The notes below the pieces were generated by a model that did no database searches, was not told where the DNA came from, and worked only from the letters and a program-made list of their open reading frames with translations. This document shows, piece by piece, positions 41,966 to 58,290 of a stretch of DNA of 64,000 bases. The DNA is taken from NCBI GenBank assembly GCA_025059715.1, contig JANXCE010000008.1, positions 488 through 64,487 on the forward strand. Direction: 5' to 3'. Source of the stretch: Caldimicrobium sp. (lineage in GTDB: Bacteria > Desulfobacterota > Thermodesulfobacteria > Thermodesulfobacteriales > Thermodesulfobacteriaceae). Made by a program: the position numbers and the translations under genes. Every line of letters starts with the position of its first letter. The first letter of the stretch is position 1.

Positions 41966-42751
41966 CTACTCCTCCAAACCTTTAAAGTCTTCCACTGTTA
42001 GCTCTTGACAAGCTTCTTTTACTCTTTCAATTGCGGTAAAAAAATCCTCTCCAATTGTTCTTACCCTTAAACCATAGGCTCTTTGAATAGCCTTTCTTAC
42101 AATTTCACCTTTGAGTAAGGCATTCTCCCAACCAAATTCCCCATACTTCTCATTAACAACTCTATTGAGATCAATCAAAGCCTCCGCTCTCCTTCTCCTT
42201 TCCTCCACTGCCTCCTCAAGAGTTAACTCCAAAAACCCATCTATCTTAGCCAAAAAATTCTCATAAAAACTTGCCGGAAACCGACTGTCTTTCTCTTCTA
42301 TAGCGAAACCAAAGGTAATCAACATGGGTTCCTTTAGATAGGTAAACAGATCCTCTTCTTTAAGCTGAGGATCCTCGCGATAAAAATCCATATAAAGCCT
42401 ATAAGCCTGTTTTGACTTTTCTTTGACATTAGGGGGCTTCTCCGTATTAAATTCAAGAATGTAATGATAGAGACTTTCGTCCACTACAATAGCCAATATT
42501 TCTCTGGCTCCAAGATCACGCATTGCTTCCAAACGGTGTCTACCATCAACTACATAATACTTTCCATCCTTAGGAACTACTACAATGGGAGTTAAAAAAC
42601 CAAGTTTTTCTATAGCCATCTCTAAGTGTTTCTTTAAACTCTCAGAGATATCCCTTTGAAAGGGAGGAATAGAAATTTCCTCCAACCTGAAAATAGCTAA
42701 TTTTAGAGGCTGTCTCTTTACGGGATCTTCAAAGGAGGCTAAAACCTTCAT
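41966..42751 (-). CDS. ParB/Srx N-terminal-domain protein
   Basis: PFQRDIS, GFLTPIVV, YVVDGRHRLEA. Confidence 0.75.
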   Translation of the reverse strand: MKVLASFEDPVKRQPLKLAIFRLEEISIPPFQRDISESLKKHLEMAIEKLGFLTPIVVVPKDGKYYVVDGRHRLEAMRDLGAREILAIVVDESLYHYILEFNTEKPPNVKEKSKQAYRLYMDFYREDPQLKEEDLFTYLKEPMLITFGFAIEEKDSRFPASFYENFLAKIDGFLELTLEEAVEERRRRAEALIDLNRVVNEKYGEFGWENALLKGEIVRKAIQRAYGLRVRTIGEDFFTAIERVKEACQELTVEDFKGLEE

Positions 42752-42764
42752 AAAACCCTACCTC

Positions 42765-43880
42765 TTAGTCCGCACTTTTCCTAAGAATTGTTGGGATCTC
42801 TAATACATCTTCATTCAAAATCTCACGCCAATCTGCAGTCTTAATCTCCTCCCTTCTCTTGGTGATTCTCTCCATAGAAAGCACTTTCTCAGAGGGTTTG
42901 ACCTGCTCTTTTTCTAAACCCGTAGCAATAACAGTCAACCTAAGGGTTTCCCCCAAGGCTTCATCAAAGACTACCCCCAAGTAGACCCGAGCCTCGGGAT
43001 GTAATTCTTTAGATATAGTCCCGGTAATAATCTGGGTCTCTTGAAGGGTCAGAGTTTCTGGATGAACACTTATATTAAGAAGAAGTCCCTTGGCACCTCG
43101 AATGGAGAGATCCTCTAATAGAGGGCTTGAGATAGCCATTTGAGTAGCAATTTGAGCCCTATCTTCTCCTATCCCTTCTCCCATCCCCATAAGAGCAATT
43201 CCACCACTCTCCGTCATAACCGCCTTCACATCCGCAAAGTCCAGATTAATGTATCCAGGCGAAAGAATTAGATCAGAAATTCCCCTTACTGCATAATATA
43301 ATACATCATCTGCTTTTTTAAACATTTCATACAGCCTTTCCTGAGGCGCTCCTAATATAATTAATTTATCGTTTGGAATGGTAATCAAAGTATCTACATA
43401 TTTCTTCAATTCTTCTAAACCTTCCTCTGCCTGCCTGATACGGACCTTGCCTTCAAAAGTAAAAGGTTTAGTAACTACCGCTACAGTTAATATACCTAAT
43501 TCTTTACAGATTGACGCAATAACTGGAGTAGCCCCGGTTCCCGTTCCTCCTCCCATACCAGCAGCTAAAAAAACCATATCTGCATCTCTTAAACAGTCTC
43601 TTATATCCCTTTCTGATTCCTCTGCAGCTTTTCTGCCAATCTCAGGTTTACCACCTGCACCCAATCCCTTTGTTAAATTTTTACCTAACTGAATTTTAAC
43701 AGGTGCTGGGTTCAGAGAGAGAACCTTATAGTCTGTGTTGGCAGCAATAAACTCAACTCCCAATAGTCCCCTTTTGATCATATGAGCAACCGCATTCCCT
43801 CCAGCTCCTCCCACACCTATAACCTTAATATTAGGCTGATGTTTTATCTCTTCCTCCAATAGATCAAACGGTATAGCCAT
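42765..43880 (-). CDS. ftsZ: Cell division protein FtsZ
   Basis: IGVGGAGGNA, GMGGGTGTG, INLDFADV, C-terminal LEIPTILRK. Confidence 0.99.
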   Translation of the reverse strand: MAIPFDLLEEEIKHQPNIKVIGVGGAGGNAVAHMIKRGLLGVEFIAANTDYKVLSLNPAPVKIQLGKNLTKGLGAGGKPEIGRKAAEESERDIRDCLRDADMVFLAAGMGGGTGTGATPVIASICKELGILTVAVVTKPFTFEGKVRIRQAEEGLEELKKYVDTLITIPNDKLIILGAPQERLYEMFKKADDVLYYAVRGISDLILSPGYINLDFADVKAVMTESGGIALMGMGEGIGEDRAQIATQMAISSPLLEDLSIRGAKGLLLNISVHPETLTLQETQIITGTISKELHPEARVYLGVVFDEALGETLRLTVIATGLEKEQVKPSEKVLSMERITKRREEIKTADWREILNEDVLEIPTILRKSAD

Positions 43881-43892
43881 GGCAGCCTCCCT

Positions 43893-45098
43893 TTAGATTT
43901 TTAAAAATTGTTTTAATTTTCTCCACCATCCCTCTTTTTTTGACCGCTTTTGCATACTTTGAGCATAGTTCTGATAGGCATAAAGGAGCATTCCAACTGC
44001 AGTGGAATATCTAGGATGATAAATCTCCTCTGTTAATCCTGATAATCTTTCCGGATAACCAATCCTTGCAGGTAAATCCAATATTTGATCACAAAGATAA
44101 ATTAAACCAGGAAGAAGGACAGAACCTCCCGTCAAAACCACACCACTGGTGAGATAGGTCTTTGGAAAATTCTTAATTTCCGCATCAATCAAAACCAGTA
44201 ATTCTCTTACTCTTTCTTCTAATATCTCTGCTAAGATTTTTTTATTTATGCTTCTTGAGGGTCTATTACCAATTCCCGGAACCTCTATAAATTCCTCTTC
44301 GCCTACAAGTTCTCTTAAACAAACACCCTTTTCTATCTTTAATCTTTCCGCCTCCGCCTTAGTGGTCCTCAAACAAACCGCAAGGTCACCAGTTAGCAAT
44401 TCACCTCCAACAGGAACCGAGCCTGCAAATCTTAGTACTCCATCCTTATACACAACTAAATCGCTGGTTCCTCCACCAAAGTCTATAAGGAGCACTCCTA
44501 AGTCCTTTTCTTCAGGGGTTAATACAGCCTCCGCAGAGGCTAACCCCTGAAATATTACTCCATCTACTTCATACCCTATGTTCTCGAAACATCTGAGAAG
44601 ATTCTGCACATGGGACCTCTGAGCAGTAATAAGTAGAACATGAGCCTCTAATCTTATCCCAGTCATACCTACCGGTTGAGTGATACCTTTAGTTTGATCT
44701 ACTACAAACTCCTGAGGAATTACATGCAATAGGATTTTATCTTGGGATATATCTACCAACTGAGCAGAATTAAGGACTTCCTCTACATCTTGAGGTGTAA
44801 CCTCCTTTTCTCTAAGAGCCACCACACCCATACCCGATTGAATCTTAATATGGCTTCCCGCAATACTCGTAAAAACTAAATTTGGCATAACCTTTGCCTG
44901 TGTTTTTGCTCTTTCCACCGCATTTTTAATACTCTGAGTTGCCTCCTCAATGTTTACTACCCCTCCTCGCTTTAGACCCAAAGCTGGGGAAACTCCCATA
45001 CCAGTTACCCACAACTTACCATCTCTTTCCTCCCCTATTAAGGCACAAATCTTAGTTGTGCCCACATCTACTACTAATATTCCTCCATCCCTAACCAT
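43893..45098 (-). CDS. ftsA: Cell division protein FtsA
   Basis: DVGTTK, GMTGIRLE, DFGGGTSD, VLTGGS. Confidence 0.97.
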   Translation of the reverse strand: MVRDGGILVVDVGTTKICALIGEERDGKLWVTGMGVSPALGLKRGGVVNIEEATQSIKNAVERAKTQAKVMPNLVFTSIAGSHIKIQSGMGVVALREKEVTPQDVEEVLNSAQLVDISQDKILLHVIPQEFVVDQTKGITQPVGMTGIRLEAHVLLITAQRSHVQNLLRCFENIGYEVDGVIFQGLASAEAVLTPEEKDLGVLLIDFGGGTSDLVVYKDGVLRFAGSVPVGGELLTGDLAVCLRTTKAEAERLKIEKGVCLRELVGEEEFIEVPGIGNRPSRSINKKILAEILEERVRELLVLIDAEIKNFPKTYLTSGVVLTGGSVLLPGLIYLCDQILDLPARIGYPERLSGLTEEIYHPRYSTAVGMLLYAYQNYAQSMQKRSKKEGWWRKLKQFLKI

Positions 45099-45101
45099 AG
45101 T

Positions 45102-45827
45102 TTAACTCCTAAATTTAATCAATGCTTGCCCAAAAGGATAATCCATCCTTATTAAATCTATCTTCTCTATCTGCTTACTCTCATAGAGATATACCATAAT
45201 TCTATCAAGGTGTAGATAAAGTTTGGTTAGCTCCTCCGTCACACCCAAAGGAAAATAAATTTTTATATGATTTTTAGTTTGAAATATTATTTTATTTTTA
45301 TCCAAAGTTATCTTAGAATAATTTTCGTATACAGGAAGATACTTTTTATTAGTCTTTAACCATTCCAAAAAAGTCAAAAAGTTATCTTTCCAAGTCTCAT
45401 TCTTTATTTCTATCAGTGGATAATAAAGATAATCCTGAGGAAGAACCCCTCCTATAATTATCCCTTTTCTATCTATGAGATATCCCTTGTGCTCTTTAAT
45501 GAGAATGGCAAGGGCCTCCCGTTCTTTTATAATTATTTCAAGTAAGGAAGGAAGCCTCCGGATAATTACCACCTCTTCTATCAAAGGATGAGCCTTAAGT
45601 CTTTTCTCTAAATCCTTGAGATTTATTCGAAAAAGCCTTTCCTGACCCTTTAAATCTGTAAGCCTTTTCACTTCATCCGCTGAAATTTTTTTGTTGTTAA
45701 GAACCCTAATTTCTTTCAGTACAAAAAGATCCGTGAAATAAAGAACAAATACAACCATAAAGAGTAAAGTTTTAATTATCAAACCAGTAATAAGAAATAG
45801 CTTATATCTCGTCCAAAGGTTTCCCAT
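45102..45827 (-). CDS. ftsQ: Cell division protein FtsQ/DivIB
   Basis: Single TM, POTRA-like segment (RRLPSLLEIIIKERE), position before ftsA. Confidence 0.85.
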   Translation of the reverse strand: MGNLWTRYKLFLITGLIIKTLLFMVVFVLYFTDLFVLKEIRVLNNKKISADEVKRLTDLKGQERLFRINLKDLEKRLKAHPLIEEVVIIRRLPSLLEIIIKEREALAILIKEHKGYLIDRKGIIIGGVLPQDYLYYPLIEIKNETWKDNFLTFLEWLKTNKKYLPVYENYSKITLDKNKIIFQTKNHIKIYFPLGVTEELTKLYLHLDRIMVYLYESKQIEKIDLIRMDYPFGQALIKFRS

Positions 45828-46734
45828 TATCAAACCCCAAGAAATGGACCTCTGGTTCTAACCAAATACCAAAGGTTTCATAAACCCTCTTTCGCGCTAA
45901 TTTCATTAAAGCAAGAACATCCTCCGCCTTAGCTTTTCCAGTATTAACTATAAAATTAGCGTGCCTTTCAGATATCTTAGCCTCACCCCACTTGTATCCC
46001 TTCAAACCCACCTGTTCAATCATGGCCCCTGCAAATCCACCAGGGGGATTTTTAAAGGTGGATCCAAAGCTTTTCTCACCAAGGGGCTGGGTACTCCTCC
46101 TCTTTTTCCAAAGTTCCATAACTCTCTCCCTTAACCTGTGAGGCTCAACCTTAGAAAAATTTAATACCGCGGAAATAATGATCCCCTCTTGTTTAAAGGC
46201 TCTATAGGACCAAAAAGCTTCACTACTATCTATCTCCCTTAATCTACCCTTATCCCAGAGTTCAATCTTATTAACTATGGAGGAGGTCTCCTTTCCAAAG
46301 GCTCCCGCATTCATCCTTATAGCTCCCCCAAGGGTTGCGGGAACCCCTACCAAAAATTCAAATCCCTCATAGCCCTCTTGAATAGCTGTCCTTACAAGCT
46401 CTTTAATTCTTGTGCCTGAGAGCGCCTGAAGAATTAATTTTTCACCTCTGTAGAGCACCTCAATTCCCTTAAGATTCTTCATCGCTATTACCACTCCTTC
46501 ATAGCCCCTATCAGAGACAAGTATGTTACTCCCACCACCCAACACGAAATAAGGTATCGCCCTCTCTGATAAAAAGTTCAGGAGTTCTAAAAAAGTTGAT
46601 TTTTCCTGGGGAAAAACTACCCTTCGGGCTGGGCCTCCTATTCCAATAGTGGTATAGCGAGAAAGGGAAACCTCTCTCTCAAAGGGTATAGCTAATTTTT
46701 CTAAAAAAATATCCAGTTCTTTAAACCACCACAT
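45802..46734 (-). CDS. murB: UDP-N-acetylmuramate dehydrogenase
   Basis: LGGGSNILV, PATLGGAIRMNAGA, GSTFKNP, SERHANF. Confidence 0.96.
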   Translation of the reverse strand: MWWFKELDIFLEKLAIPFEREVSLSRYTTIGIGGPARRVVFPQEKSTFLELLNFLSERAIPYFVLGGGSNILVSDRGYEGVVIAMKNLKGIEVLYRGEKLILQALSGTRIKELVRTAIQEGYEGFEFLVGVPATLGGAIRMNAGAFGKETSSIVNKIELWDKGRLREIDSSEAFWSYRAFKQEGIIISAVLNFSKVEPHRLRERVMELWKKRRSTQPLGEKSFGSTFKNPPGGFAGAMIEQVGLKGYKWGEAKISERHANFIVNTGKAKAEDVLALMKLARKRVYETFGIWLEPEVHFLGFDNGKPLDEI

Positions 46735-48115
46735 AAGTGCTCTGCCCTATACTTCCTATTAACTCTTCATGAACTTTGTATATATTTCCTGCACCCATAG
46801 TGAGAATTATATTTTCTTCAGAAGCAAGCTCTCTAACAATAGCTAAAACTTCCTCTCTGGTTTTAGCAAAAAAGGTAGGCTTAGAACCTCGAATCTCCTT
46901 TGTAGCTTGATAAAAGGTCTCTCCAGTAATACCAGGTAGAGGTTCTTCATTTGCTGGATAAATCTCTGTTAAGACTAAAACCTCTGGCTCTCTAAGCACT
47001 AATAAGAAATCCTCCCAAAGTGCACGCGTTCTGGAATAACGATGGGGTTGAAAACATAAAATAAGTCTCTTATCGGGATAAAGCCCTCTCAGGGTTGATA
47101 GAGTAACTTGAATCTCTCGGGGATGATGGGCATAATCATCTATTAGAAGGGCTCCCTTATAGATTCCTTTACACTCTAATCTTCTCTTAACTCCCTTGAA
47201 TTGTTCTAAGACTCTAAAAACCCTTTTTAAAGGTAGCCCAAGAAACAAGGCCACTCCAATTGCTCCTAAGGCATTCAGGGCATTGTGTTTCCCTGGTATA
47301 CCAAGCCTATATCTTCCTAATTTCTTCTCACCATAATAGACTTCTACTAAGGGATGGGCACTCTCCTCGATTATTTTTCCACGGAGAGTAGCTTCAGGGG
47401 AAAATCCATAATAAAGAAAGGGACCAGAGAGCTCTGTCACCACCTCTCTAACACCTAAATCATCTATACACAAGATAACCTTTCCCTCCGGATGTGCCTT
47501 TAATATAAAACTCATAAAGGCTTTTTTAATAGCTTGAAAATCCGCATAAAAATCTAAATGCTCTCTATCAATATTAGTGATAACCTCTATAAAGGGCGAG
47601 TAAAGTAAGAAGGTGCCATCACTTTCGTCTGCTTCCGCAACTAAGTATTCACTTTTACCTAATAAAGAATTAGTTTTTATATTGTTTATAATACCTCCCA
47701 CAACAACGGTGGGATTCAGCCTCATGTTAAGCAGAATTTCCGCAATCAGCGATGTAGTGGTAGTTTTACCATGAGAGCCAGCTACTACAATACTTTTAGG
47801 ATAAGCTTGCATAACTTCCGAAAGCATTCTTGCTCTGGGCACAAGAAGAAGGCCTTTTTCTTTCGCGGTTCTTATCTCTATGTTTTCCCTTGGCACTGCA
47901 GAGGAATAAACTACAATCTCTGCATCCTCCAAATGAGTGGGATCATGTCCAAGATAAACATCAATCCCCGATGATATTAAAGGCTCTATATACTTAGTTC
48001 TACTCAAATCGCATCCTGTGACTCTGTGACCCAGGCGATTAAGGAGCAAGGCAAGTCCACTCATTCCCACACCACCAATGCCTATAAAGTGAATCTTTCT
48101 CTTTTTCTCTAACAC
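46721..48115 (-). CDS. murC: UDP-N-acetylmuramate-L-alanine ligase
   Basis: IGIGGVGMSG, GSHGKTTTT, EADESDG, DDYAHHP, FQPHRYSRT. Confidence 0.97.
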   Translation of the reverse strand: MLEKKRKIHFIGIGGVGMSGLALLLNRLGHRVTGCDLSRTKYIEPLISSGIDVYLGHDPTHLEDAEIVVYSSAVPRENIEIRTAKEKGLLLVPRARMLSEVMQAYPKSIVVAGSHGKTTTTSLIAEILLNMRLNPTVVVGGIINNIKTNSLLGKSEYLVAEADESDGTFLLYSPFIEVITNIDREHLDFYADFQAIKKAFMSFILKAHPEGKVILCIDDLGVREVVTELSGPFLYYGFSPEATLRGKIIEESAHPLVEVYYGEKKLGRYRLGIPGKHNALNALGAIGVALFLGLPLKRVFRVLEQFKGVKRRLECKGIYKGALLIDDYAHHPREIQVTLSTLRGLYPDKRLILCFQPHRYSRTRALWEDFLLVLREPEVLVLTEIYPANEEPLPGITGETFYQATKEIRGSKPTFFAKTREEVLAIVRELASEENIILTMGAGNIYKVHEELIGSIGQSTYVVV

Positions 48116-49203
48116 AATCTATCCCTACGAAAAAGCTTTAAAGTCTCTTCTATAATAATAGCCTTTGGCTCAAGGGGAATCAAACGAGAAAGATTTTCTC
48201 TCATAATTTGAAGCTTTCTTGGCTCTTCCAGTAGATTAGTTATAGTCTCAATTAAGTCTTCTTCACGAATCTCTTCTTGTCTAAACATCAGGGCACTTCC
48301 ACTTTTAGTCAAAACTAAGGCATTTCTTTCCTGATGATGATGCGTGGCGTAGGGATAAGGTATAAGAATAGCTGGTTTTTTCAAGGCTATTAGTTCCGCT
48401 ATAGTGGAAGCCCCGGCTCGTGAAATAACCAGATCCGCCTGAGCATAAGCCCAACCCATATCTTCAATAAAAGGATAAACTTTAAGTCGTTCCAGCTCCT
48501 GCTCACCAGTGAACTTCTCTTTATATTCGCTCCATACTCTTTCATAATCCTCATGGCCCGTTTGATGAAAGATATAGAGATTAGGGATCCTGAGAAGTAA
48601 CTCCTTAGCAATTTTAAGCATTAGGTTATTTAAAAAACGCGCTCCCAGACTTCCACCCAAAAGGAGAAGCCCTTTACCTTGATGAATCCTCTCTTTATAC
48701 TCAAGGAGCTCACTTCTAACAGGAGTCCCAGAGACTATCACCTTCTCCTTAGGAAAATAGTGAATACTATCTGCAAAGCCCACAAAAATTTTATCTACAA
48801 ATCTACTTAATAATAGATTAGCCCTTCCCGGATAAACATTTTGCTCCTGTAAAACCGCTTTCACACCCAGAATTTTCCCAGCTAACACCACTGGCACCGA
48901 TACATAACCTCCCTCGGCTACCATCACTGCGGGTTTAATTTCTTTAATCAATTTAAGAGATTTGAAAAAGGAGAGTATCAACTTGATTGTTGCTCTTAAT
49001 TTATCCTTAAGGGATCTTCCAATAAATCCCTCCACCTCCAGCTCAAAATGGGGAAAAGCACTTTTTTTGAGGATATGTCTCTCTATCTTTCTCGTGCCAG
49101 AGACAAAGTATACCTCTTCCCCTCTTTTGTGAAGTTCCTCCGCTATAGCTATTCCAGGAAAGAGATGGCCACCTGTGCCTCCTGCCACAATAAGCCACCT
49201 CAA
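48109..49203 (-). CDS. murG: MurG glycosyltransferase
   Basis: GGTGGHLFP, EQN, GGSLGA, SRAGASTIAE. Confidence 0.96.
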   Translation of the reverse strand: MRWLIVAGGTGGHLFPGIAIAEELHKRGEEVYFVSGTRKIERHILKKSAFPHFELEVEGFIGRSLKDKLRATIKLILSFFKSLKLIKEIKPAVMVAEGGYVSVPVVLAGKILGVKAVLQEQNVYPGRANLLLSRFVDKIFVGFADSIHYFPKEKVIVSGTPVRSELLEYKERIHQGKGLLLLGGSLGARFLNNLMLKIAKELLLRIPNLYIFHQTGHEDYERVWSEYKEKFTGEQELERLKVYPFIEDMGWAYAQADLVISRAGASTIAELIALKKPAILIPYPYATHHHQERNALVLTKSGSALMFRQEEIREEDLIETITNLLEEPRKLQIMRENLSRLIPLEPKAIIIEETLKLFRRDRLC

Positions 49204-50594
49204 TGGTAACTTCCCCTCTCTATGCTATTTCCTAAAAATTTAGGCGCATATTTTAAAACGATTTCTCTAAATACCTCTCCCCTTTCGTGATAATCTCTAA
49301 ACTGATCATAACTTGAGCAAGCAGGTGAGAGAAGCACAATGTCTCCGGGAATAGCTATTTCAAAGACTCTCTTCAAAGCTAAGTAAAGGTTCTCTTCCAG
49401 ATAAGTCTCAACAGTGCCTCCTAATTCCTCTAATATTATATATCTTGCCTCACCCATCAGAATAAGTATCCTAACCTTTTCCCTAATTAGCTCTTTGAGG
49501 GGAGCATAAGAACTTCCCTTGTGCCTTCCTCCAAGGATCAAAATGAGAGGCCCAGGAAGACCTTTTAGAGCTTGCAGAGTAGCATCTACATTAGTGGCTT
49601 TAGAATCATTGATAAAGGTGACCCCCCCAAAGGTTCCTACATATTCAAGTCTATGAGGAAATCCCACGAAGTTTCCTATCAACTTTTCACAGGCTTCTCT
49701 GTCAGCACCTGCAAGTCTTCCTACAAGTAGAGCACAGGCAAGATTGAGCCTATTATGCACCCCAAGAAGTCTAAAGGAACAGAGGGAATACCTTTCTTCT
49801 TCTTCAAGGGATAACACAATTTCCTCCCCCTCCAAATAAGCGGAGGCTTGCTCCTTTCTATCCTCCGCAAAAAAGAGGGGCTTACCTCTGACCAGTTCTC
49901 GAAAGAGTCTAAAAAAGGGTTCTTCAAGAGGTAAAACAGACCAATCTTGGTTATTCTGCCTTTCAAAAAGTCTGTATTTGAAATAGGCATATTCTTCTAT
50001 AGAATTATACCGATCTAAATGATCGGGAGTAATATTTAAAAGAAGACCTATTTTAGGAGAAAACTCCACTATGGTCTCCAATTGGAAACTGGATATCTCA
50101 AGCACTAATTTATCCACCTTTATACCTGACAACACAAATTCTGAGAGGGGAATTCCGTAGTTGCCCCCAGTGAAAACCCTAAATCCTGCTAACTTTAAAA
50201 GTTCTGAAACCATAGCCGTAGTGGTAGTTTTTCCGTTAGTTCCAGTGATGGCAATCAAGTTATCCCTTTCTTCTGTCTTTAATAGTTGATAGGCAAGCTC
50301 CAATTCTCCTAAGAGAGGAATCCCCTTTTTAAGAGCGGGAGCTACCACGCTTTGAGGAACACCTGGACTTATAACTATTAGATCCGCCTTCATAAAAGTG
50401 TCAGGATTGTGACCTCCAGTCTCAAAAATGACCCCTTGAACCTCCATAGAGGCTAAAAATGAGGGTGGAAGTGCCTCCCGCGGTCTAGCTTCAGAGACAA
50501 TAACCTCAGCACCCTTTACCAGCAAAAGCCTTGTAACCGCTTGCCCACTTTTTCCAAAACCCACAACCACTACTCTTTTTCCCCTTAACTCCAT
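49200..50594 (-). CDS. murD: UDP-N-acetylmuramoyl-L-alanine-D-glutamate ligase
   Basis: GTNGKTTTT, EISSFQLE, PDHLDRY, NDSKATN, LSPACSSYD. Confidence 0.97.
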   Translation of the reverse strand: MELRGKRVVVVGFGKSGQAVTRLLLVKGAEVIVSEARPREALPPSFLASMEVQGVIFETGGHNPDTFMKADLIVISPGVPQSVVAPALKKGIPLLGELELAYQLLKTEERDNLIAITGTNGKTTTTAMVSELLKLAGFRVFTGGNYGIPLSEFVLSGIKVDKLVLEISSFQLETIVEFSPKIGLLLNITPDHLDRYNSIEEYAYFKYRLFERQNNQDWSVLPLEEPFFRLFRELVRGKPLFFAEDRKEQASAYLEGEEIVLSLEEEERYSLCSFRLLGVHNRLNLACALLVGRLAGADREACEKLIGNFVGFPHRLEYVGTFGGVTFINDSKATNVDATLQALKGLPGPLILILGGRHKGSSYAPLKELIREKVRILILMGEARYIILEELGGTVETYLEENLYLALKRVFEIAIPGDIVLLSPACSSYDQFRDYHERGEVFREIVLKYAPKFLGNSIERGSYH

Positions 50595-50600
50595 ATCCTA

Positions 50601-51680
50601 TCACCTTATTTTCAAAGTGCTCAAAGCCAACAGGCCACAAATTATAGAAATGATCCAAAATCGCACTACGACTTTATTTTCCTTCCAGCCCTTCAATTCA
50701 AAATGGTGATGAAGGGGCGCCATGCGAAAGATCCGCTTACCACCAGTTAATTTAAAATAACTAACCTGAAGAATTACAGAAAGGGCCTCCATAACAAAAA
50801 CCGCTCCTGCCAGCACCAATAAAAACTCCTGCTTGATCATCACCGCAATTGCCCCCATGACCCCACCTAAAGAGAGGGATCCTACATCTCCCATAAAAAT
50901 CTCTGCGGGATGTGAATTATACCATAAAAAGCCAAGGCCAGCCCCTCCAAGGATTGCACATACTATGGAGAGCTCTCCTGCATAGGGCACATAGGGAATG
51001 AAAAGATAATTGGCAAACTTGACATGCCCTGCCACATAAGAAAGAACGGTATAAACTCCTGCCACAACACAGAAAGGCACTATAGCAAGCCCATCAAGCC
51101 CATCTGTGAGATTAACCCCGTTAGAACTTCCCATAATCACTATACTTGCAAATAAAAGGTAAAAAACCCCTAAATCAAGGATTACCTTTTTAAAAAAGGG
51201 TAAGTTTAGGGCAGAACTAAAGTTTAAATAGTGAAAGAGAAAATAGTAAAACACAAAAATTATTAAAAATTGTAAAAAGAGCTTTTCTCTGGCTCTTAGC
51301 CCTAGATTTTTACCCCTTTTGAGTTTAAGATAATCATCTAAAAAACCGATTAATCCAAAACCTAAGAAAATGAAAAGGGCTAACCATACGAAGGGATTGG
51401 TGAGATTACACCAGAGGAGAACCGATATAGTAACTCCCGCAATAATGACTACACCACCCATAGTAGGAGTGCCAGTTTTAGCCTGATGATGAACAGGCCC
51501 CTCTTCTCTCACAATTTGTCCAAACTGTCTTCTTTTCATGTATCTTATAAAGCGAGGCATCAGTAAATATACAATCAAAAAAGCGGTAATTGAGCCATAA
51601 ATCATGCGGAAGGTTATGTATTTAAAGATATTAAAAAAGGAAATCCACTCACTTAAAGGATATAAAATATGATAAAACAC
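50601..51680 (-). CDS. mraY: Phospho-MurNAc-pentapeptide transferase
   Basis: TPTMGG, NLTDGLDGL, FMGDVGS, MAPLHHHFE. Confidence 0.98.
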   Translation of the reverse strand: MFYHILYPLSEWISFFNIFKYITFRMIYGSITAFLIVYLLMPRFIRYMKRRQFGQIVREEGPVHHQAKTGTPTMGGVVIIAGVTISVLLWCNLTNPFVWLALFIFLGFGLIGFLDDYLKLKRGKNLGLRAREKLFLQFLIIFVFYYFLFHYLNFSSALNLPFFKKVILDLGVFYLLFASIVIMGSSNGVNLTDGLDGLAIVPFCVVAGVYTVLSYVAGHVKFANYLFIPYVPYAGELSIVCAILGGAGLGFLWYNSHPAEIFMGDVGSLSLGGVMGAIAVMIKQEFLLVLAGAVFVMEALSVILQVSYFKLTGGKRIFRMAPLHHHFELKGWKENKVVVRFWIISIICGLLALSTLKIR

Positions 51681-51681
51681 C

Positions 51682-53076
51682 TTACAGGTCCCCCTTTAAG
51701 AGCTTCTCTACAATTCTCTCCATTCTAAGAGACCGAGACCCCTTCACTAAAACTATGGCTCTATTTTTTGGCAAAGTTCCTCTCTGTAAAAATTCTTCTA
51801 CAGTAGTGTATACCTCGTAAGGTTTCCCTGAAGACTTATAGCCCTCAACATAATATTTAGCGGTATCCCCAATAAAAATGGCCCTATCTACCACTGAACC
51901 TGCCAATTCTCCAATTTCACGATGATACCTCGGAGCTTCCTGCCCAAGCTCTTTCATCTCACCTAAAATTACAATCTTCTCTCCTAAAGACGCCCTATGA
52001 TCAAAAAGCCAATAGAGAGCTGCAGATACCGAGCCAGGATTAGCATTATATGTATCATCAACAAGCAAGTAGGAACCTACTTCATAGATTTTACTTCTGG
52101 TTGGTAGAGGCTCTGACGAGGAAAGAACAGTTATTAGTTCTCTTATAGATAAACCTGTTCCAAGGCCCACACCTATAGCTCCCAGAAGGTTCAACAGATT
52201 GTGTTTTCCAAAAAGGGCTACCTCAAGCTCAAAGGTCTCCTGCTCATATTGGATAGTGAGTCTTGAAGTTTTATCTATGCTTTCCCACCTTAGCAATCTC
52301 AAATCCGCCCCCTCGCTTTCTCCATAGGCAATCTTTCTCTGAGAAAAGGCTTTAACCCTGTCGCGCAAAAGGGGTTGATCGTAAAAGTAAATCAAAACTC
52401 CTAAAGGATCCGTCCTTTCAAAAAGAGAAACCTTTTCCTCCAGGACTCCCTCAAGGGTCTCTAAGCCTTCCAAATGGGCAGGATATATGGATGTAATAAG
52501 GGAAATTTGAGGTTGCACTATGTCCGCAAGTCTCCCAATTTCTCCTTTAAAGCTTGTGCCTACTTCAAGTATGACCCACTGGGGCTTATCGGTAAAAGAA
52601 AGGATACTTAAGGGAACACCTATTAAATTGTTGTAATTAGCCTCATTTTTTCTAACTTTGTAGAATTTAGACAGAAGAACCCAGGTGAGCTCCTTAGTAG
52701 TAGTTTTTCCACAAGACCCGGTTATGGCTATAACCTTAAAATCCTCTTTGACTCGAAAATATTGAGCTAAATCACCTAAAGCCTTAAGAGTATCTTTAAC
52801 TAAAATTATAGAAATCCCTTGGGGTAAAGTTTCCAGTTTGAGATCCCCTGGTAGATGATCTAAGACAAGCCCTTTTGCGCCCCGCTCTAAAGCCACCTTC
52901 CAAAAGTGGTGTCCATCGAATCTTTTACCTTTGAGCGCAAAGAAAAGGAATCCAGGTTCTAAGACTCTGGTGTCAGTGCAAATCCCCTTAAAGATAATTC
53001 CCATATCCCCATGAATAAGAACACCAGAGGTAGACCGTATTACTTCCTCAGTGCTCAACAAATTCTCTATTAACAT
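51682..53076 (-). CDS. murF: UDP-MurNAc-tripeptide-D-Ala-D-Ala ligase
   Basis: TGSCGKTTTKE, NNLIGVP, DDTYNANP, GEMKELG, VKGSR. Confidence 0.95.
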   Translation of the reverse strand: MLIENLLSTEEVIRSTSGVLIHGDMGIIFKGICTDTRVLEPGFLFFALKGKRFDGHHFWKVALERGAKGLVLDHLPGDLKLETLPQGISIILVKDTLKALGDLAQYFRVKEDFKVIAITGSCGKTTTKELTWVLLSKFYKVRKNEANYNNLIGVPLSILSFTDKPQWVILEVGTSFKGEIGRLADIVQPQISLITSIYPAHLEGLETLEGVLEEKVSLFERTDPLGVLIYFYDQPLLRDRVKAFSQRKIAYGESEGADLRLLRWESIDKTSRLTIQYEQETFELEVALFGKHNLLNLLGAIGVGLGTGLSIRELITVLSSSEPLPTRSKIYEVGSYLLVDDTYNANPGSVSAALYWLFDHRASLGEKIVILGEMKELGQEAPRYHREIGELAGSVVDRAIFIGDTAKYYVEGYKSSGKPYEVYTTVEEFLQRGTLPKNRAIVLVKGSRSLRMERIVEKLLKGDL

Positions 53077-54551
53077 TTAGTCTCTCCAAGGGTATTTAAG
53101 ACCCTTTTTATCTCTTCTTGATCTGAAAAGTAAATTTTCTTTCCCTCTATTTCTTGGTATCTTTCATGTCCCTTACCGGCTACAAGAAGAATATCTCCTT
53201 CTTGTAACATTTCCACTGCCGTAGCTATAGCTTCTCCTCTTTCTGGTATGCATAGATAGGGCTTAGTTCCATTGAGCCCTTCCTTTATATCCTCTATTAT
53301 TTTAAGTGGGTCCTCATAGCGAGGGTTATCTGAGGTGAGAATAATCACATCGCTTAGTTTCTGAGCCACTCTTCCCATAAGAGGCCTCTTCCCAGGGTCC
53401 CTGTTACCACCACATCCAAAGAGAAGAATAATTCTACCCCTTTTTAGAGGTAACAAACTTTTTAAGGCCTGTTCTAAGGCCTCAGGCGTATGGGCGTAAT
53501 CTACAAAGATTAGAGCATCTCCCTTTTTACCACAAAGCTCTAAACGACCTGGTGGATTAGGTAAATTCTTAAGGTTATTTATCACCTCCTCTAAGTTTAG
53601 ATTCAAAGCAACAGCACATCCCAACAAGGTTACTAAATTTTTGGCCTGATAATCACCAACCAACTGAGTCTCTACCCTATAGGACTTTTCTCTAATTTTA
53701 AGCTCTAATTTTAATCCAGGGTTTCTCTCAAGAATCTCCGCTTTTATGTCAAAATTATTCACGATGAGTAGTCTCTCCCTACTAAGAAGCCCCTCTCTAA
53801 GAAGTTCATCTGCAAGCCTTTTCCCAAACTCACTTTCAAGAGATACTACTGCCCAACCATCATCCTCAAGATAATGAGTAAAGAGCTTTTTCTTAGATAA
53901 ATAGTAATTTAACATATTTCCATGATAATCCAGATGATCTCGAGAAAGATTTGTAAAACCTGCCACCTTAAACTTTATACCTTTAATTCTATCTTGATCT
54001 AAGGCATGAGAGGAGACCTCCATAACCATGTATTTAATATTTTTTTCAACAGCTTTCTTCAGTAAAGGGCCAAGACGAAAAATAGAAGGAGTAGTCTCTT
54101 GGGCATCCTCTCTATCGCCTATTTCATAAAATAGTGTGCCCACATAACCTGTAGGATAACCTAATTTTTTAAGAAGTTCCTTGAGAAAAAAACTTACCGA
54201 AGATTTACCATTTGTCCCAGTTATACCAATAAAGGTGAAAGCTTTTTCTGGGTGATCATAAAACTTCAGCACAAGTTTATTTCCTACTTCCAAGGGATCT
54301 ATAACCTGTAGTTGAGAAACTTTAATGGCTGGATCGGGTGGGGTTTCACGAAGGATGGCTACAGCTCCCTTTTCCACAGCAAGGGGAATAAATTCTTCTC
54401 CATGGTGTTGAAGACCCCTTCTTGCAACAAAGAGATATCCGGGTTTTACCTCCTGAGCTCTATCGGTAATACCTGTAATTAAGAGCTCATCGCTAAGGTA
54501 AAGTTTATTTAAAACTTCCTGTCCCTCCAACAGAATCCCTAACCTTTTCAT
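53070..54551 (-). CDS. murE: UDP-MurNAc-dipeptide-DAP ligase
   Basis: TGTNGKSS, MEVSSH, DYAHTP, FGCGGNRD, DNPR (DAP-type), AGKGHE. Confidence 0.97.
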   Translation of the reverse strand: MKRLGILLEGQEVLNKLYLSDELLITGITDRAQEVKPGYLFVARRGLQHHGEEFIPLAVEKGAVAILRETPPDPAIKVSQLQVIDPLEVGNKLVLKFYDHPEKAFTFIGITGTNGKSSVSFFLKELLKKLGYPTGYVGTLFYEIGDREDAQETTPSIFRLGPLLKKAVEKNIKYMVMEVSSHALDQDRIKGIKFKVAGFTNLSRDHLDYHGNMLNYYLSKKKLFTHYLEDDGWAVVSLESEFGKRLADELLREGLLSRERLLIVNNFDIKAEILERNPGLKLELKIREKSYRVETQLVGDYQAKNLVTLLGCAVALNLNLEEVINNLKNLPNPPGRLELCGKKGDALIFVDYAHTPEALEQALKSLLPLKRGRIILLFGCGGNRDPGKRPLMGRVAQKLSDVIILTSDNPRYEDPLKIIEDIKEGLNGTKPYLCIPERGEAIATAVEMLQEGDILLVAGKGHERYQEIEGKKIYFSDQEEIKRVLNTLGETKC

Positions 54552-55561
54552 GAGTTAGTTATTAAATTTACAAGATATTTATGCCTCTTTTTAAGCACCT
54601 CCCAAAGGTTATCCTCCCCACTCTCCCCTGATTGAAAATAATCGGAGAATACAAATAAATAATCATCACTTACAATAAAAGCAAGCCACTGTCTTTTATG
54701 GGGTAAATAGAGATAAAGACTTTCTCCATCTTTCTCCTGATCAGTGATATCACAAAGTCTCTCTTTTACTGGAAGAAGGGTTGGTTTGACCTTGGTTCCA
54801 CAGGCTTGGGAAAGATAGGTTTGAACTATATTCAGAGGAGCTAAATAAATTAAATTCCCCTTTCTTTTAGCCTCAACTGAACCCAATTCCCACATAGTTT
54901 TTAAATCTTCATTAAAGAGATTATCTCTCACCAAAAAAGGCTCAGTGAGAAAATTTTTTTCTTCTTTACTGAAAAAGACTAACAGCTCACCAGTATCTCT
55001 CTTAAATACAGCCAGATGGGTGGGTAAAGGAGAAGCAAGGATTCGAAAATAATTATAAATCTTTTTTGAAAGATTTAAATCAAGGGAAACTCTCTTGCTT
55101 TCGCCTTCCTTTAGCTCCTTGTCAAAGATCTTTTCTAACCCTGTTATCCCATCCCCTGCTACACATAAACCGATAAGGCCTCTTAGTTCTGGATAGAGAA
55201 TCTCTCGTTTTATCTCCCCCCTTATAACCACATTTCTTACTTTCTTTAGTTTATCGATCTCTTCAAAGGTTAGTGATTCAGATATAAGAAATAGGCCCCT
55301 TTTAGGCAAGTCCAAACTTCTTATGAGATAAGGCCTAAGTTCCTCAGGCCAGTCTTTCCCCAAAAGAGAAGAGCCATCTATTAACAAGTAAGCCTCAAAT
55401 CTCTCCTTGTTTATTACCAAAGGCTCCCCTGCTCGATCTAATAGGTAGCCTCTTTTTCTTTCATGTTGAAAAGAACTGCCTCCCTCAGAGATATTTAAAA
55501 TAAAAGTAAAAGAAAGGAATAATACTGCCAAAAGAAGACAGAAATCTATTTTGAAGTTCAT
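54548..55561 (-). CDS. Shortened FtsI/PBP-like protein lacking transpeptidase catalytic motifs
   Basis: ftsI position between ftsL-like and murE; TM then RGYLLDRAGEPL, GITGLEKIFD, DTGELLVF, APLNIV; no SxxK anywhere in 337 aa. Confidence 0.75.
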   Translation of the reverse strand: MNFKIDFCLLLAVLFLSFTFILNISEGGSSFQHERKRGYLLDRAGEPLVINKERFEAYLLIDGSSLLGKDWPEELRPYLIRSLDLPKRGLFLISESLTFEEIDKLKKVRNVVIRGEIKREILYPELRGLIGLCVAGDGITGLEKIFDKELKEGESKRVSLDLNLSKKIYNYFRILASPLPTHLAVFKRDTGELLVFFSKEEKNFLTEPFLVRDNLFNEDLKTMWELGSVEAKRKGNLIYLAPLNIVQTYLSQACGTKVKPTLLPVKERLCDITDQEKDGESLYLYLPHKRQWLAFIVSDDYLFVFSDYFQSGESGEDNLWEVLKKRHKYLVNLITNS

Positions 55562-55564
55562 CCT

Positions 55565-55915
55565 TTACCTTAGCCTTATGATATCGTGTTCTTGAGGTTC
55601 TCTCAGACCCAAAGCCTTAGCTTTTTCTAAAACTACCTCTCTTGAAGTTAGACGGCTTAACTCCCTCTCCAATTGAACCTTTTCTGCATTTAAAGTTCTC
55701 TTTTCGAATTTTATTTTAAAATACACCAAGGCCTTATAGGCAATCGCAACAGTTATGATCAGGAAAAGCACTGCTAAAAGAATTAACAGAAAATTTCCTA
55801 ACCACTCTAAAAACCTCTCTTTCAAAGAAATTTCCTCAGTATTTTTATCCCTTTTAGTAGAATAGTTATAGTCTAATGAGGGCTTTAAGGTATAAACCCT
55901 ACCGCCCATATTCAA
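55565..55915 (-). CDS. ftsL: FtsL-like protein
   Basis: One TM followed by coiled coil ending AKALGL; position after rsmH. Confidence 0.75.
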   Translation of the reverse strand: MNMGGRVYTLKPSLDYNYSTKRDKNTEEISLKERFLEWLGNFLLILLAVLFLIITVAIAYKALVYFKIKFEKRTLNAEKVQLERELSRLTSREVVLEKAKALGLREPQEHDIIRLR

Positions 55916-56775
55916 ATCCTCCTTTCCGCTACTCTTAATTTAGCACTCCTTGCCCGAGGATTTTCCCTTACTTCCTCTTGAGAGGGTCTCACAGGTTTTT
56001 TGGTAAGTAGCGCCAATCTCTCATCCTTTTTGAAGAATCTTTTCACTAATCTATCCTCTAAGGAGTGAAAGGAGATCACCGCTATTCTCCCACCAGGTTT
56101 TAGAATATCTGGTAAATTCTTCAAGGCTAACTCTAAATTTTTTAATTCCTGATTAACTTCTATTCTTATTGCTTGAAAAACTAACGCAAAAAGATCCTTT
56201 TCTTTTTTCTTAGGAGGCTTATAAAATTCTCTTATCCTATCAACTAAATCAAAAGTTGTATTCAGCGGTTTTATCTTTCTCTTCTTACAAAGCCACTTTG
56301 CAAAGCATCTTGCCTTAGGCACTTCCCCTTTATAAAAAACATTGCCTAATTCTTCTTCAGATAACCTGTTGAGTAAATCCCTTGCCGTCAAGGTTAATTC
56401 TTGACTCATTCTCATATCTAAGGGCTCATTTTTTTGGAAGGTAAAACCTCTACCTGAGCCTTCTAACAAAAAAGAGGAAAGTCCTAAATCAAGCAACACA
56501 CCATCCGCATATACACCCTCCTTTTGAAGCACCTCTTTAATGTAAGTAAAATTATAAGGATATACCTTTATTCTCTCCCCATAACCCCTTAGTCTCTCCG
56601 TGGCAATTCTTAAGGATTCCTCATCCCATTCAAAGGCATAAACACTTGCTCCCTTTTCCAAGAAAACCTCTGTATGCCCACCCATCCCTAAGGTTCCATC
56701 TACGATTACGCTTCCAGGCTTAATAGGTAACCATTCTAAAATTTCTTTAACTAAAACCGGTTTATGAAGCAGCAG
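55912..56775 (-). CDS. rsmH: 16S rRNA m4C1402 methyltransferase; probable CTG start
   Basis: HKPVLVKE and DGTLGMGGH lie upstream of or around the ORF-track ATG (56685); PLDMRM, FQAIRIEVNQEL, ISFHSLEDR, NPRARSAKLR. Confidence 0.95.
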   Translation of the reverse strand: MLLHKPVLVKEILEWLPIKPGSVIVDGTLGMGGHTEVFLEKGASVYAFEWDEESLRIATERLRGYGERIKVYPYNFTYIKEVLQKEGVYADGVLLDLGLSSFLLEGSGRGFTFQKNEPLDMRMSQELTLTARDLLNRLSEEELGNVFYKGEVPKARCFAKWLCKKRKIKPLNTTFDLVDRIREFYKPPKKKEKDLFALVFQAIRIEVNQELKNLELALKNLPDILKPGGRIAVISFHSLEDRLVKRFFKKDERLALLTKKPVRPSQEEVRENPRARSAKLRVAERRI

Positions 56776-57226
56776 TTCTACCTTCCTCTAAATAGGGATT
56801 AATTGCCCCTAAAATTTCCTCAAAGGAAGCCTTAATGTCGTTAAAGCGCTCTTCAAGCCTCCGGGGATTCCAGATTTCAAAATAGTTAAGCATTCCAAGG
56901 AGGATAACCTCCCTATCTACCTCAATCTCTGACCTCAAAGATTGTGGTAAAAGAAGCCTTCCTTGCTTGTCTGGCTCAATCTCCTCTGCAGACCCAAGAA
57001 AGTATCTAAGAAAGTCTCGCCCAGCCTTAGCCGAAAAGGGAATCTTAAGTAAAGCCTCTTCAATTTTCTTCCACTCCACTATGGGATAAACAACTAAGCA
57101 CTCAGGAAGATTAGTTACCACTAACACCTCTGAGCCATATTTCACCCTTAAGATCTCTCTAAATTTAGAAGGAAGACTGATTCTTCCCTTCTCATCCAAC
57201 GAATGTTTGAACTTTCCCCTAAACAT
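56762..57226 (-). CDS. mraZ: Transcriptional regulator MraZ
   Basis: MFRGKFKHSLDEKGRISLP, DKQGRLLLP, FEIWN; start ATG 57226. Confidence 0.96.
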   Translation of the reverse strand: MFRGKFKHSLDEKGRISLPSKFREILRVKYGSEVLVVTNLPECLVVYPIVEWKKIEEALLKIPFSAKAGRDFLRYFLGSAEEIEPDKQGRLLLPQSLRSEIEVDREVILLGMLNYFEIWNPRRLEERFNDIKASFEEILGAINPYLEEGRTAAS

Positions 57227-57231
57227 TCCTT

Positions 57232-57256
57232 CCACTTTTTTCCACTTTATACCACT
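57232..57256 (-). promoter_or_regulatory. MraZ operator: three GTGG boxes at 10-bp period
   Basis: Minus strand AGTGGTATAA-AGTGGAAAAA-AGTGGAAGGA-ATG. Confidence 0.85.
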
Positions 57257-57258
57257 AA

Positions 57259-57286
57259 ATAATATTGGAGTAAATAAAAAAGTCAA
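57259..57286 (-). promoter_or_regulatory. Candidate dcw promoter TTGACT-N16-TATTAT
   Basis: Hexamers at 57286-57281 and 57264-57259, immediately upstream of the MraZ boxes. Confidence 0.6.
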
Positions 57287-57329: not shown

Positions 57330-58290
57330 AAGGAGTTTCTTGGATTAGAATTAAGAAGTAATATTTCCTTTAGTTTGGGCAGTCTCCCTTATCCTTTCAC
57401 TAACTCCCTCTGTATCCTAAAACAGGGCTATCAATTTTTCTGTCATATGCCTTATAAAATTGGCTTGCTCTTCACCAATTATCATCTTATCTTTTACTCA
57501 TAAAATTTAGTCAGACACTCTATTAACCATAGTTGTTTGCTCTGCTCCTCTCCCGTAATAGTGGTAAAGGCATTCTCCACTTTATTTATCAAGTTTATAT
57601 ATCAACCTAACAATGCTCTCTACACCCTGTGAAACCTCTTTACTACTCCCTTGTAATAAGTAAATTTTTTCAGAAATAATCTTAGTTGCATCCTGAGTCT
57701 GGCGAGCAGGCTCCTCCACTTCACTAGTAACTCCTGTAAAGCCCTTCCCTACCTCTCCAGCTCGTGGAGCCTCAACAGAGACATTTAATGCTAAGAGGTT
57801 AGTTTGGTCCCTTACATTGTTTATCAGGTTTACTACTTCGTCTATCTCTGAAGTTGTTTTAATAAAACCTACATCTTCCCTTGAGTGCCGGATACAGCCT
57901 CTATCGTGTCTCCAACCAAAAGGGTGCTCACCTTGGCACTTCTTGCTATTTCTGTTATCGCAGAGGATGACTCTTGAAGAGAGATATGACAATAAAATCT
58001 GCCTTTTCCTTAAATTCTTGACTCATTTCCTCAAATTGTGTTGTCTCCATAGTTAGAATCTCTGTTTCATTGAAAAAGACCTTTACCTAAGAACGCCTCC
58101 TCCCTTGGCTAAAGAAGCTCTTGCCTCCCTGGTTAAAGTTAAACTCTAAGAGTATCTATTAAAACTAAGTGTAAGGGCAAAAGTAAAAAGGATTAATAAA
58201 GGAGTGATTATTAATCAGCATAAACCATAGCTCAACTTTATCCCTAATCATCATTTCAAATTTTTCAAAATTTTTCCTATTTCTATCATT
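57330..58290 (-). pseudogene. Methyl-accepting chemotaxis protein pseudogene
   Basis: DQTNLLALNVSVEAPRAGEVGKGFTGV (decayed signalling hairpin); flanking TM-like and helical pieces broken by stops; outer boundaries approximate. Confidence 0.8.

Follow-up and report, generated by a model that had tools for sequence, protein, structure and literature searches.

The DNA analysed here (the window, 64,000 nucleotides of contig JANXCE010000008.1 from a Caldimicrobium sp. of the class Thermodesulfobacteria) carries on its minus strand a cluster of genes for division and the cell wall (dcw cluster; Table 1). FtsW, a polymerase of the SEDS family (named for shape, elongation, division, and sporulation), and FtsI, a class B penicillin-binding protein (PBP), are regarded together as the near-universal, essential synthase of septal peptidoglycan and as a prime target of beta-lactams. 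In the window, the open reading frame (ORF) at the ftsI position, between ftsL and murE, is intact and 337 amino acids (aa) long; we call its product pseudo-FtsI. Its stop codon overlaps the start of murE (ATGA), and the gene is translationally coupled to murE. At the place of ftsW, murD and murG overlap by 4 nt, so that there is no room for ftsW in the cluster. Similarly, murB overlaps the longest ftsQ ORF and, therefore, no ddl lies within the cluster; ddl is relocated elsewhere in the same genome (C55:25880-26827).

In an alignment with its relatives, pseudo-FtsI is homologous, column by column, to the canonical FtsI of a sister family (G040, 650 aa, with EPGSTFK, SSN, KTGT, and, at the C terminus, a PASTA domain), which was taken as the reference. 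An N-terminal transmembrane (TM) helix is followed by the pedestal (the non-penicillin-binding module), in which three motifs are retained: KRGYLLDRAGEPL at aa 36-48, KREILYPEL at aa 118-126, and GDGITGLEKIFDKELKEG at aa 136-153. The rest of the protein is a collapsed remnant of the transpeptidase domain. Of this domain, the hairpin of beta1 and beta2 (LAVFKRDTGELLVFFS), one helix (APLNIVQTYLSQACG), three strands of the core, and the helix at the C terminus persist; the all-alpha subdomain has been deleted. EPFLVRD occupies the columns of the EPGSTxK active site (the SxxK motif), ~75-90 residues, SxN among them, have been deleted as a block, and the strand with KTG is gone. A regular-expression scan finds neither SxxK nor K[ST]G anywhere in the 337 aa, and the alignment has no SxN at the homologous columns. 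An earlier note on this DNA, made from the sequence, had described an intact 337-aa ORF with TM and pedestal landmarks and no SxxK, EPFLVRD in place of EPGSTxK, and a cluster with neither a slot for ftsW nor a ddl; the ORF, the scan, the alignment, and the two gene overlaps agree with this. The same note had read KDG (aa 277-279) as the form in which KTG persists. The tripeptide is present, but it occurs in the window protein and its 88%-identical relative only and is absent from the rest of the family, so that a vestige of KTG is rejected. A repositioned nucleophile is likewise rejected, since the remnant has no invariant serine among 20 sequences of the short family. The gene descends vertically from ftsI and is without any catalytic machinery and without about half of the transpeptidase domain, and covalent binding of beta-lactams is predicted to be absent.

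The AlphaFold2 model of pseudo-FtsI (built with the above alignment; pLDDT 84.3, pTM 0.78) consists of the TM helix (aa 7-23), the pedestal, and a small remnant made of a sheet plus helices. With Foldseek, the top matches in the PDB are class B PBPs of the PBP3/FtsI type from Escherichia coli and Pseudomonas aeruginosa (E ~1e-11, probability 1.0). The Pfam Transpeptidase domain (PF00905) has no match in pseudo-FtsI, and NCBIfam spoVD_pbp reaches 14.8 bits. As a class B PBP, the protein has the membrane anchor and the pedestal with its three motifs, and it lacks the catalytic transpeptidase. With PBP3 of these two species (the best Foldseek matches; for example, PDB 7onw, 4kqo, and 8p1u chain B), it shares the position between ftsL and murE, the TM helix, pedestal motifs of the types RGxxxDRxG, RxxxYP, and GxxGxE, and, from the transpeptidase fold, the core of beta-sheet together with the C-terminal helix. 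It differs in its length (337 aa vs. ~580 aa) and in having no SxxK, SxN, or KTG, no all-alpha subdomain, and no FtsW partner.

Table 1. Features of the dcw cluster in the window, parts of pseudo-FtsI, and loci of the membrane protein found in the ftsW slot of other genomes.
Feature	Position	Strand	Basis or remark
mraZ	56762-57286	minus	head of the cluster, with rsmH
rsmH	55912-56685, or start further upstream	minus	Pfam Methyltransf_5, 262 bits
ftsL (116 aa)	55565-55915	minus	NCBIfam FtsL_Actino, E 5e-6; weak Pfam FtsL_2/DivIC matches; position
ftsI-position ORF (pseudo-FtsI, 337 aa, intact)	54548-55561	minus	between ftsL and murE
TM helix, N-terminal, aa 7-23	55493-55543	minus	AlphaFold2/DSSP helix; hydrophobic sequence
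Pedestal (non-penicillin-binding module), aa 28-180	55022-55480	minus	alignment; weak PBP_dimer match; conservation; dN/dS
Collapsed transpeptidase remnant, aa 181-337	54551-55021	minus	alignment with canonical FtsI; AlphaFold2 secondary structure
EPFLVRD, aa 207-213, on the EPGSTxK (SxxK) columns	54923-54943	minus	alignment
murE	53070-54551	minus	ORF; orthologues across relatives
murF	51682-53076	minus	ORF; orthologues across relatives
mraY	50601-51680	minus	ORF; orthologues across relatives
murD	49200-50594	minus	ORF; Pfam domain; orthologues across relatives
murD stop/murG start overlap, TTGA (empty ftsW slot)	49200-49203	minus	4 nt
murG	48109-49203	minus	ORF; Pfam domain; orthologues across relatives
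murC	46721-48115	minus	ORF
murB	45802-46734	minus	ORF
ftsQ (longest ORF)	45102-45833	minus	Pfam POTRA_1, E 7e-13
ftsA	43893-45098	minus	ORF
ftsZ	42765-43880	minus	ORF
Slot membrane protein	L037:9316-10107		G039, family f4, which includes Syntrophorhabdaceae
Slot membrane protein	L153:9413-10201
Slot membrane protein	L150:2798-3586
Slot membrane protein	L084:9904-10692
Slot membrane protein	L149:2885-3679
Slot membrane protein	L151:2907-3692

In the short family (20 sequences), 21 columns are invariant; 18 of them fall within aa 28-180 and the others are M1 and G191/E192. On average, the sequences are 50% identical to the window protein in the pedestal and 35% identical in the C-terminal remnant, and the TM helix and the pedestal are the parts that are conserved best. 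Intact homologues of 315-338 aa, 30-55% identical, are found in 19 of 41 relatives; they belong to three genera of the family (g1, g2, and g6). Measured against the 88%-identical homologue (L122), the ratio of nonsynonymous to synonymous substitution rates (dN/dS) is 0.19 for the whole gene (dS 0.30), 0.16 for the pedestal, and 0.22 for the transpeptidase remnant; in the same pair it is 0.14 for ftsL and 0.04-0.10 for the mur genes. Both halves are thus under purifying selection, and by these substitution rates pseudo-FtsI is a functional, non-catalytic descendant of FtsI. One could also read the ORF as a functionless, decaying relic, open by chance or because of operon polarity: every catalytic motif is lost, the protein shrinks progressively along the lineage (see below), and its dN/dS exceeds that of the mur genes. 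However, the ratios of the whole gene and of both regions, at a dS of 0.30, reject a pseudogene, and the intact ORFs of similar length in three genera with their invariant columns, the confident predicted fold, and the retention of a dead FtsI in every FtsW-less lineage examined make such a relic extremely improbable.

The source assembly (1.84 Mb in 80 contigs, 99.6% complete) contains a single SEDS and a single catalytic class B PBP, both within an mreC-mreD-pbp2-rodA operon. A phmmer search of all ORFs with RodA and canonical FtsW as queries (E≤10) yields no further SEDS. Two genes carry a Transpeptidase domain, and the second PBP_dimer match in the genome is pseudo-FtsI alone. PBP2 scores 632 bits with NCBIfam TIGR03423 (cut-off 455), and the motifs STYK, SCD, and KTG are visible. 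The sole SEDS scores 246.6 bits with the NCBIfam model of RodA vs. 204.6 bits with that of FtsW, the former value being below the RodA equivalog cut-off (336.7). In a tree of SEDS proteins, the dcw-linked and the PBP2-linked proteins form two separate clades; the sole SEDS of the source genome and those of all FtsW-less relatives fall in the RodA clade (support 1.00). By synteny, NCBIfam scores, and tree, it is the RodA orthologue. The genome thus has the components of a Rod complex (the mreC-mreD-pbp2-rodA synteny, a catalytic PBP2, and MreB), and MreC, FtsB, FtsQ, and FtsL are all present, as are one class A PBP (586 bits) and one MtgA (234 bits). The earlier note had offered, as one of two explanations, that FtsWI had been relocated; this is rejected, because the sole SEDS falls in the RodA clade, no other SEDS is found, and there is a single catalytic class B PBP. 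FtsW has been lost outright in the source lineage. As regards the surroundings of the operon, mreB lies apart from it (C2:3289-4317), and upstream of mreC, a frequent position of mreB, there is a 156-aa ORF (L027:12389-12859, contig C66) with tandem repeats of the MNTRFEAxxKE type and a C-terminal TM segment.

FtsW might, together with an active FtsI, be present and yet have been missed, through an assembly gap, extreme divergence, or the use of a non-homologous polymerase. The assembly is indeed in 80 contigs, and a SEDS-like remnant of 262 aa that occurs in another clade is detected only by folding and is invisible to sequence searches (see below). Nevertheless, the finished genomes of the class have one SEDS each, the murD/murG overlap leaves nothing concealed in the slot, the phmmer search yields no further SEDS even at E≤10, and the genome has only two genes with a Transpeptidase domain; we consider an oversight of this kind very improbable.

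Within the Thermodesulfobacteria, a single SEDS is found in 42 of 42 genomes of at least 90% completeness, which represent nine genera, and each of seven single-contig (finished) relatives has one SEDS. Nearly every relative has a second transpeptidase match of class A size. The length of the protein in the ftsI slot is 522 aa in family f2, 451-474 aa in family f3, and 379-392 aa in genera g4 and g5 of family f1, in all of which PASTA is kept, and 315-338 aa, without PASTA, in genera g1, g2, and g6. The NCBIfam scores for class B PBPs fall stepwise in parallel, from 529 bits (canonical) to 142, 52, 22, and 15 bits. It is conceivable that the remnant has acquired a new function in ligand binding or catalysis, such as the sensing of stem peptides or lipid II, instead of being a passive scaffold; its dN/dS of 0.22 and its confident predicted fold would suit such a role, as would the PASTA domain kept in most relatives outside the genus group of the window protein. 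That genus group has lost PASTA, however, and the remnant is the least conserved region of the protein, its (nearly) invariant residues being K324, W224, and T261. We regard a new role as unlikely.

Across the phylum Desulfobacterota, most genomes have two SEDS and several families have one. The single-SEDS families are split: some keep the dcw ftsW, others only the mreC-pbp2-rodA genes. The FtsW-less lineages (named, outside Thermodesulfobacteria, by an exact MraY match) include Dissulfuribacter, Dissulfurimicrobium, Dissulfurirhabdus, Desulfobulbus, Desulfurivibrio, Syntrophorhabdaceae, and two uncultured families. In these, murG comes right after murD or a 262-aa membrane protein lies between the two. 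In FtsW-less lineages, the FtsI homologue is without all three motifs at the homologous columns; the dead FtsI is still full-length in Desulfobulbia (607-656 aa) and has 410-555 aa in Dissulfuribacteria. The earlier note had assigned the state to the lineage of the window. It is present there, but it is not special to it, as it spans Thermodesulfobacteria, Dissulfuribacteria, Desulfobulbia, Syntrophorhabdaceae, and others. The second explanation of that note, another synthase with FtsI kept as a pseudo-enzyme, is supported by the PBP3-like fold, the pedestal motifs, the purifying selection, and the class-wide conservation; the checks that it had proposed gave one SEDS, one catalytic class B PBP, and one class A PBP in the genome-wide count, a PBP3-like structure without an invariant serine in the remnant, and a dN/dS of 0.19 with homologues in three genera of the family. 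A complete genome of family f15 (G065; the family includes Desulfobulbus) has two SEDS matches despite a dcw cluster without ftsW and a dead FtsI.

The absence of FtsW and the death of FtsI are associated: in genomes without FtsW, the FtsI motifs are dead in 27 of 27 cases (intact in none) and, with FtsW, they are intact at 50 of 50 loci (dead at none), although the cases are phylogenetically non-independent. The FtsW-positive set comprises 48 loci from diverse bacteria of distant phyla and two from Desulfobacterota. The number of losses was counted on a FastTree tree of concatenated MraY, MurD, MurG, and MurC with SH-like (Shimodaira-Hasegawa-like) support. In this four-gene tree, Desulfobulbia, Dissulfuribacteria, and Thermodesulfobacteria form one FtsW-less clade (support 1.00); Syntrophorhabdaceae and family f57 form a second one, sister to an FtsW-positive genome; and the FtsW-less family f18 adjoins the FtsW-positive Desulfobacterales. 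With three separate FtsW-less groups in the tree, there would therefore have been at least two, and probably three, independent losses of FtsW.

In Syntrophorhabdaceae and f57, the protein between murD and murG is a conserved multi-pass membrane protein of 261-264 aa (Table 1). It has no Pfam or NCBIfam match, and its comparison with SEDS by hhalign is not significant; homology to SEDS at the level of sequence is rejected, and the fold match is the sole support for a relation. The AlphaFold2 model (pLDDT 83.9) has its best matches among FtsW and RodA structures (8p1u_A, 8tj3_B, and 6pl6_A; TM-score ~0.6, probability 1.0, E 0.02). In its predicted fold, the protein looks like a shrunken pseudo-FtsW without the SEDS sequence motifs. 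It co-occurs with an FtsI remnant of 248-324 aa.

Bacteria without FtsW must build their septum in a non-textbook way. We think it likely that FtsI survives in them as a non-catalytic subunit of the divisome, by virtue of its TM helix and pedestal, and that RodA-PBP2 and/or a class A PBP make the septal wall. In the solved structures of SEDS-class B PBP complexes and of FtsQLBWI, these two parts of the class B PBP are in contact with the SEDS polymerase and with FtsL/FtsB. Pseudo-FtsI would, most likely, be a structural or regulatory subunit that links FtsQ-FtsL-FtsB to the synthase building the septum, and the candidates for this synthase are the only pair of RodA and PBP2, the only class A PBP, and MtgA. 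The comparison between lineages suggests an order of events. The loss of FtsW would have removed the selection on the catalysis by FtsI; the catalytic residues would have died first, as in the full-length dead proteins of Desulfobulbia; and the domain would have eroded next, as in Dissulfuribacteria and, within Thermodesulfobacteria, from 522 aa down to ~315-338 aa, with PASTA also lost.

Because the retained TM helix and pedestal are the parts that contact SEDS and the regulators, we slightly favor a RodA that would be shared, with or without PBP2, by elongation and division. Pseudo-FtsI would then act as an adaptor and activator specific to division, with the class A PBP assisting. Tentatively, RodA could be time-shared, acting as the partner of PBP2 in the MreBCD elongasome and being captured and activated at division by pseudo-FtsI/FtsQLB, while PBP2 or the class A PBP would provide the cross-linking in trans. 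The main rival to a shared RodA is septation by the class A PBP, possibly along with MtgA, as in Clostridioides difficile; pseudo-FtsI and FtsQLB would recruit or regulate the enzyme and RodA-PBP2 would serve elongation only. The genome contains both the class A PBP and MtgA, the second transpeptidase match of nearly every relative is of class A size, and C. difficile provides a precedent (PMC10693644). This evidence, however, is equally compatible with the RodA model, the parts retained in pseudo-FtsI are canonically those in contact with SEDS, and C. difficile is a monoderm spore-former with another history; septation by the class A PBP thus seems to us possible but doubtful.

Several points weigh against pseudo-FtsI as a pedestal-based subunit working with another synthase, or against the recurrence of this state. 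The Pfam PBP_dimer match of pseudo-FtsI is below threshold (18.4 bits vs. a cut-off of 24.4, E 0.003). The FtsI remnant of Syntrophorhabdaceae and f57 has no Pfam PBP_dimer match, so that contact between pedestal and SEDS would not be a universal reason for retention. The synthase partner of pseudo-FtsI (RodA, the class A PBP, or MtgA) is one that we can only infer. In families f1 and f3, the identity of RodA to that of Dissulfurimicrobium drops from 0.61 to 0.35-0.40, while that of MraY drops from 0.63 to 0.55; a faster divergence of RodA where FtsI is most eroded would support a partnership between RodA and pseudo-FtsI, but it is only suggestive and weakly specific, because MurC has diverged too. 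The count of losses rests on a FastTree tree of four dcw genes.

To our knowledge, C. difficile is the single well-studied exception to septal synthesis by FtsW-FtsI, and it prompted a revised view. It divides without a functional FtsW-FtsI (Shrestha et al. 2023, PMC10693644). C. difficile is, like the bacteria described here, walled and FtsZ-using, without a canonical septal synthase made of a SEDS and a class B PBP, and with a class A PBP available; in the source genome, too, a functional FtsW and FtsI are absent and a class A PBP is present. In C. difficile, however, the dcw pair of SEDS and class B PBP, SpoVE/SpoVD, is catalytically active and specialized for sporulation, whereas in the FtsW-less lineages ftsW is deleted and ftsI is dead and shrinking, and these lineages are diderm, non-sporulating, and spread over several classes. 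In Bacillus subtilis, PBP2B, a division class B PBP, still supports division when its transpeptidase is inactivated by engineering; its structural role can be essential and is separable from catalysis. The PBP2B mutants carry engineered point mutations in cells that still have FtsW and a back-up class B PBP, whereas the inactivation of FtsI in the FtsW-less lineages is natural and ancient and goes with the loss of FtsW and of half a domain. The absence of ftsW as such has been mentioned before. Leonard et al. 2022 (PMC8871954) count ftsW among the genes that the dcw cluster has lost in Thermodesulfobacteria, and it is absent in Desulfobulbus and cable bacteria, with FtsI activity assumed (Geerlings et al. 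2021, PMC7873302). These are one-line remarks on gene content, with neither the class-wide absence of a second SEDS nor the dead FtsI, and the lineages are not linked to each other. In our literature searches, we encountered no description of a natural FtsI that is dead and shrinking in conjunction with the loss of FtsW.

Some other features of the cluster and its surroundings can be noted. The frame of rsmH is open upstream of the listed ATG (56686-56770, minus strand) and encodes there the conserved N terminus HKPVL...DGTLGMGGH; ATG, GTG, and TTG are all absent from this extension, and the true start is probably a rare codon (CTG) near the mraZ stop, rather than there being a truncation. Upstream of mraZ, a 136-aa ORF (57582-57992, minus strand) resembles only the core of the signalling domain of methyl-accepting chemotaxis proteins (LLALNVSVEAPRAGEVGKGF...) and may be a gene fragment. 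Immediately 3' of ftsZ, a 261-aa ORF (41966-42751, minus strand) contains a ParB/sulfiredoxin-like motif, VVDGRHRLEA. In some FtsW-less lineages (Dissulfuribacterales, Dissulfurimicrobium, and Desulfobulbus relatives; L138, L141, L144, L146, L147, and L148), single ORFs of 978-1048 aa combine murE with murF in a fusion; MurE-MurF chimeras have already been described (PMC10214165).

The non-canonical state of the divisome is real and conserved, and it has recurred in evolution. A large block of diderm bacteria is without FtsW and has FtsI as a conserved pseudo-enzyme; it has cultured members in Thermodesulfobacterium, Caldimicrobium, Dissulfuribacter, Desulfobulbus, and Desulfurivibrio, and, according to the literature, cable bacteria belong to it. 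The block provides a stepwise series of natural decay, from a full-length dead FtsI to minimal forms of 315 aa, and a natural dissection of the parts of FtsI needed for its non-catalytic functions, the TM helix and the pedestal. It makes testable the regulation of SEDS by the pedestal of a class B PBP and the service of one RodA in both elongation and division. Division in these bacteria is predicted to be insensitive to PBP3-specific beta-lactams. If RodA is indeed time-shared, FtsI would be a natural, activator-only class B PBP that keeps just the parts contacting SEDS and FtsL, and its repeated emergence, at least two to three times, would show that regulation by the pedestal of a class B PBP can outlast the enzymatic role.

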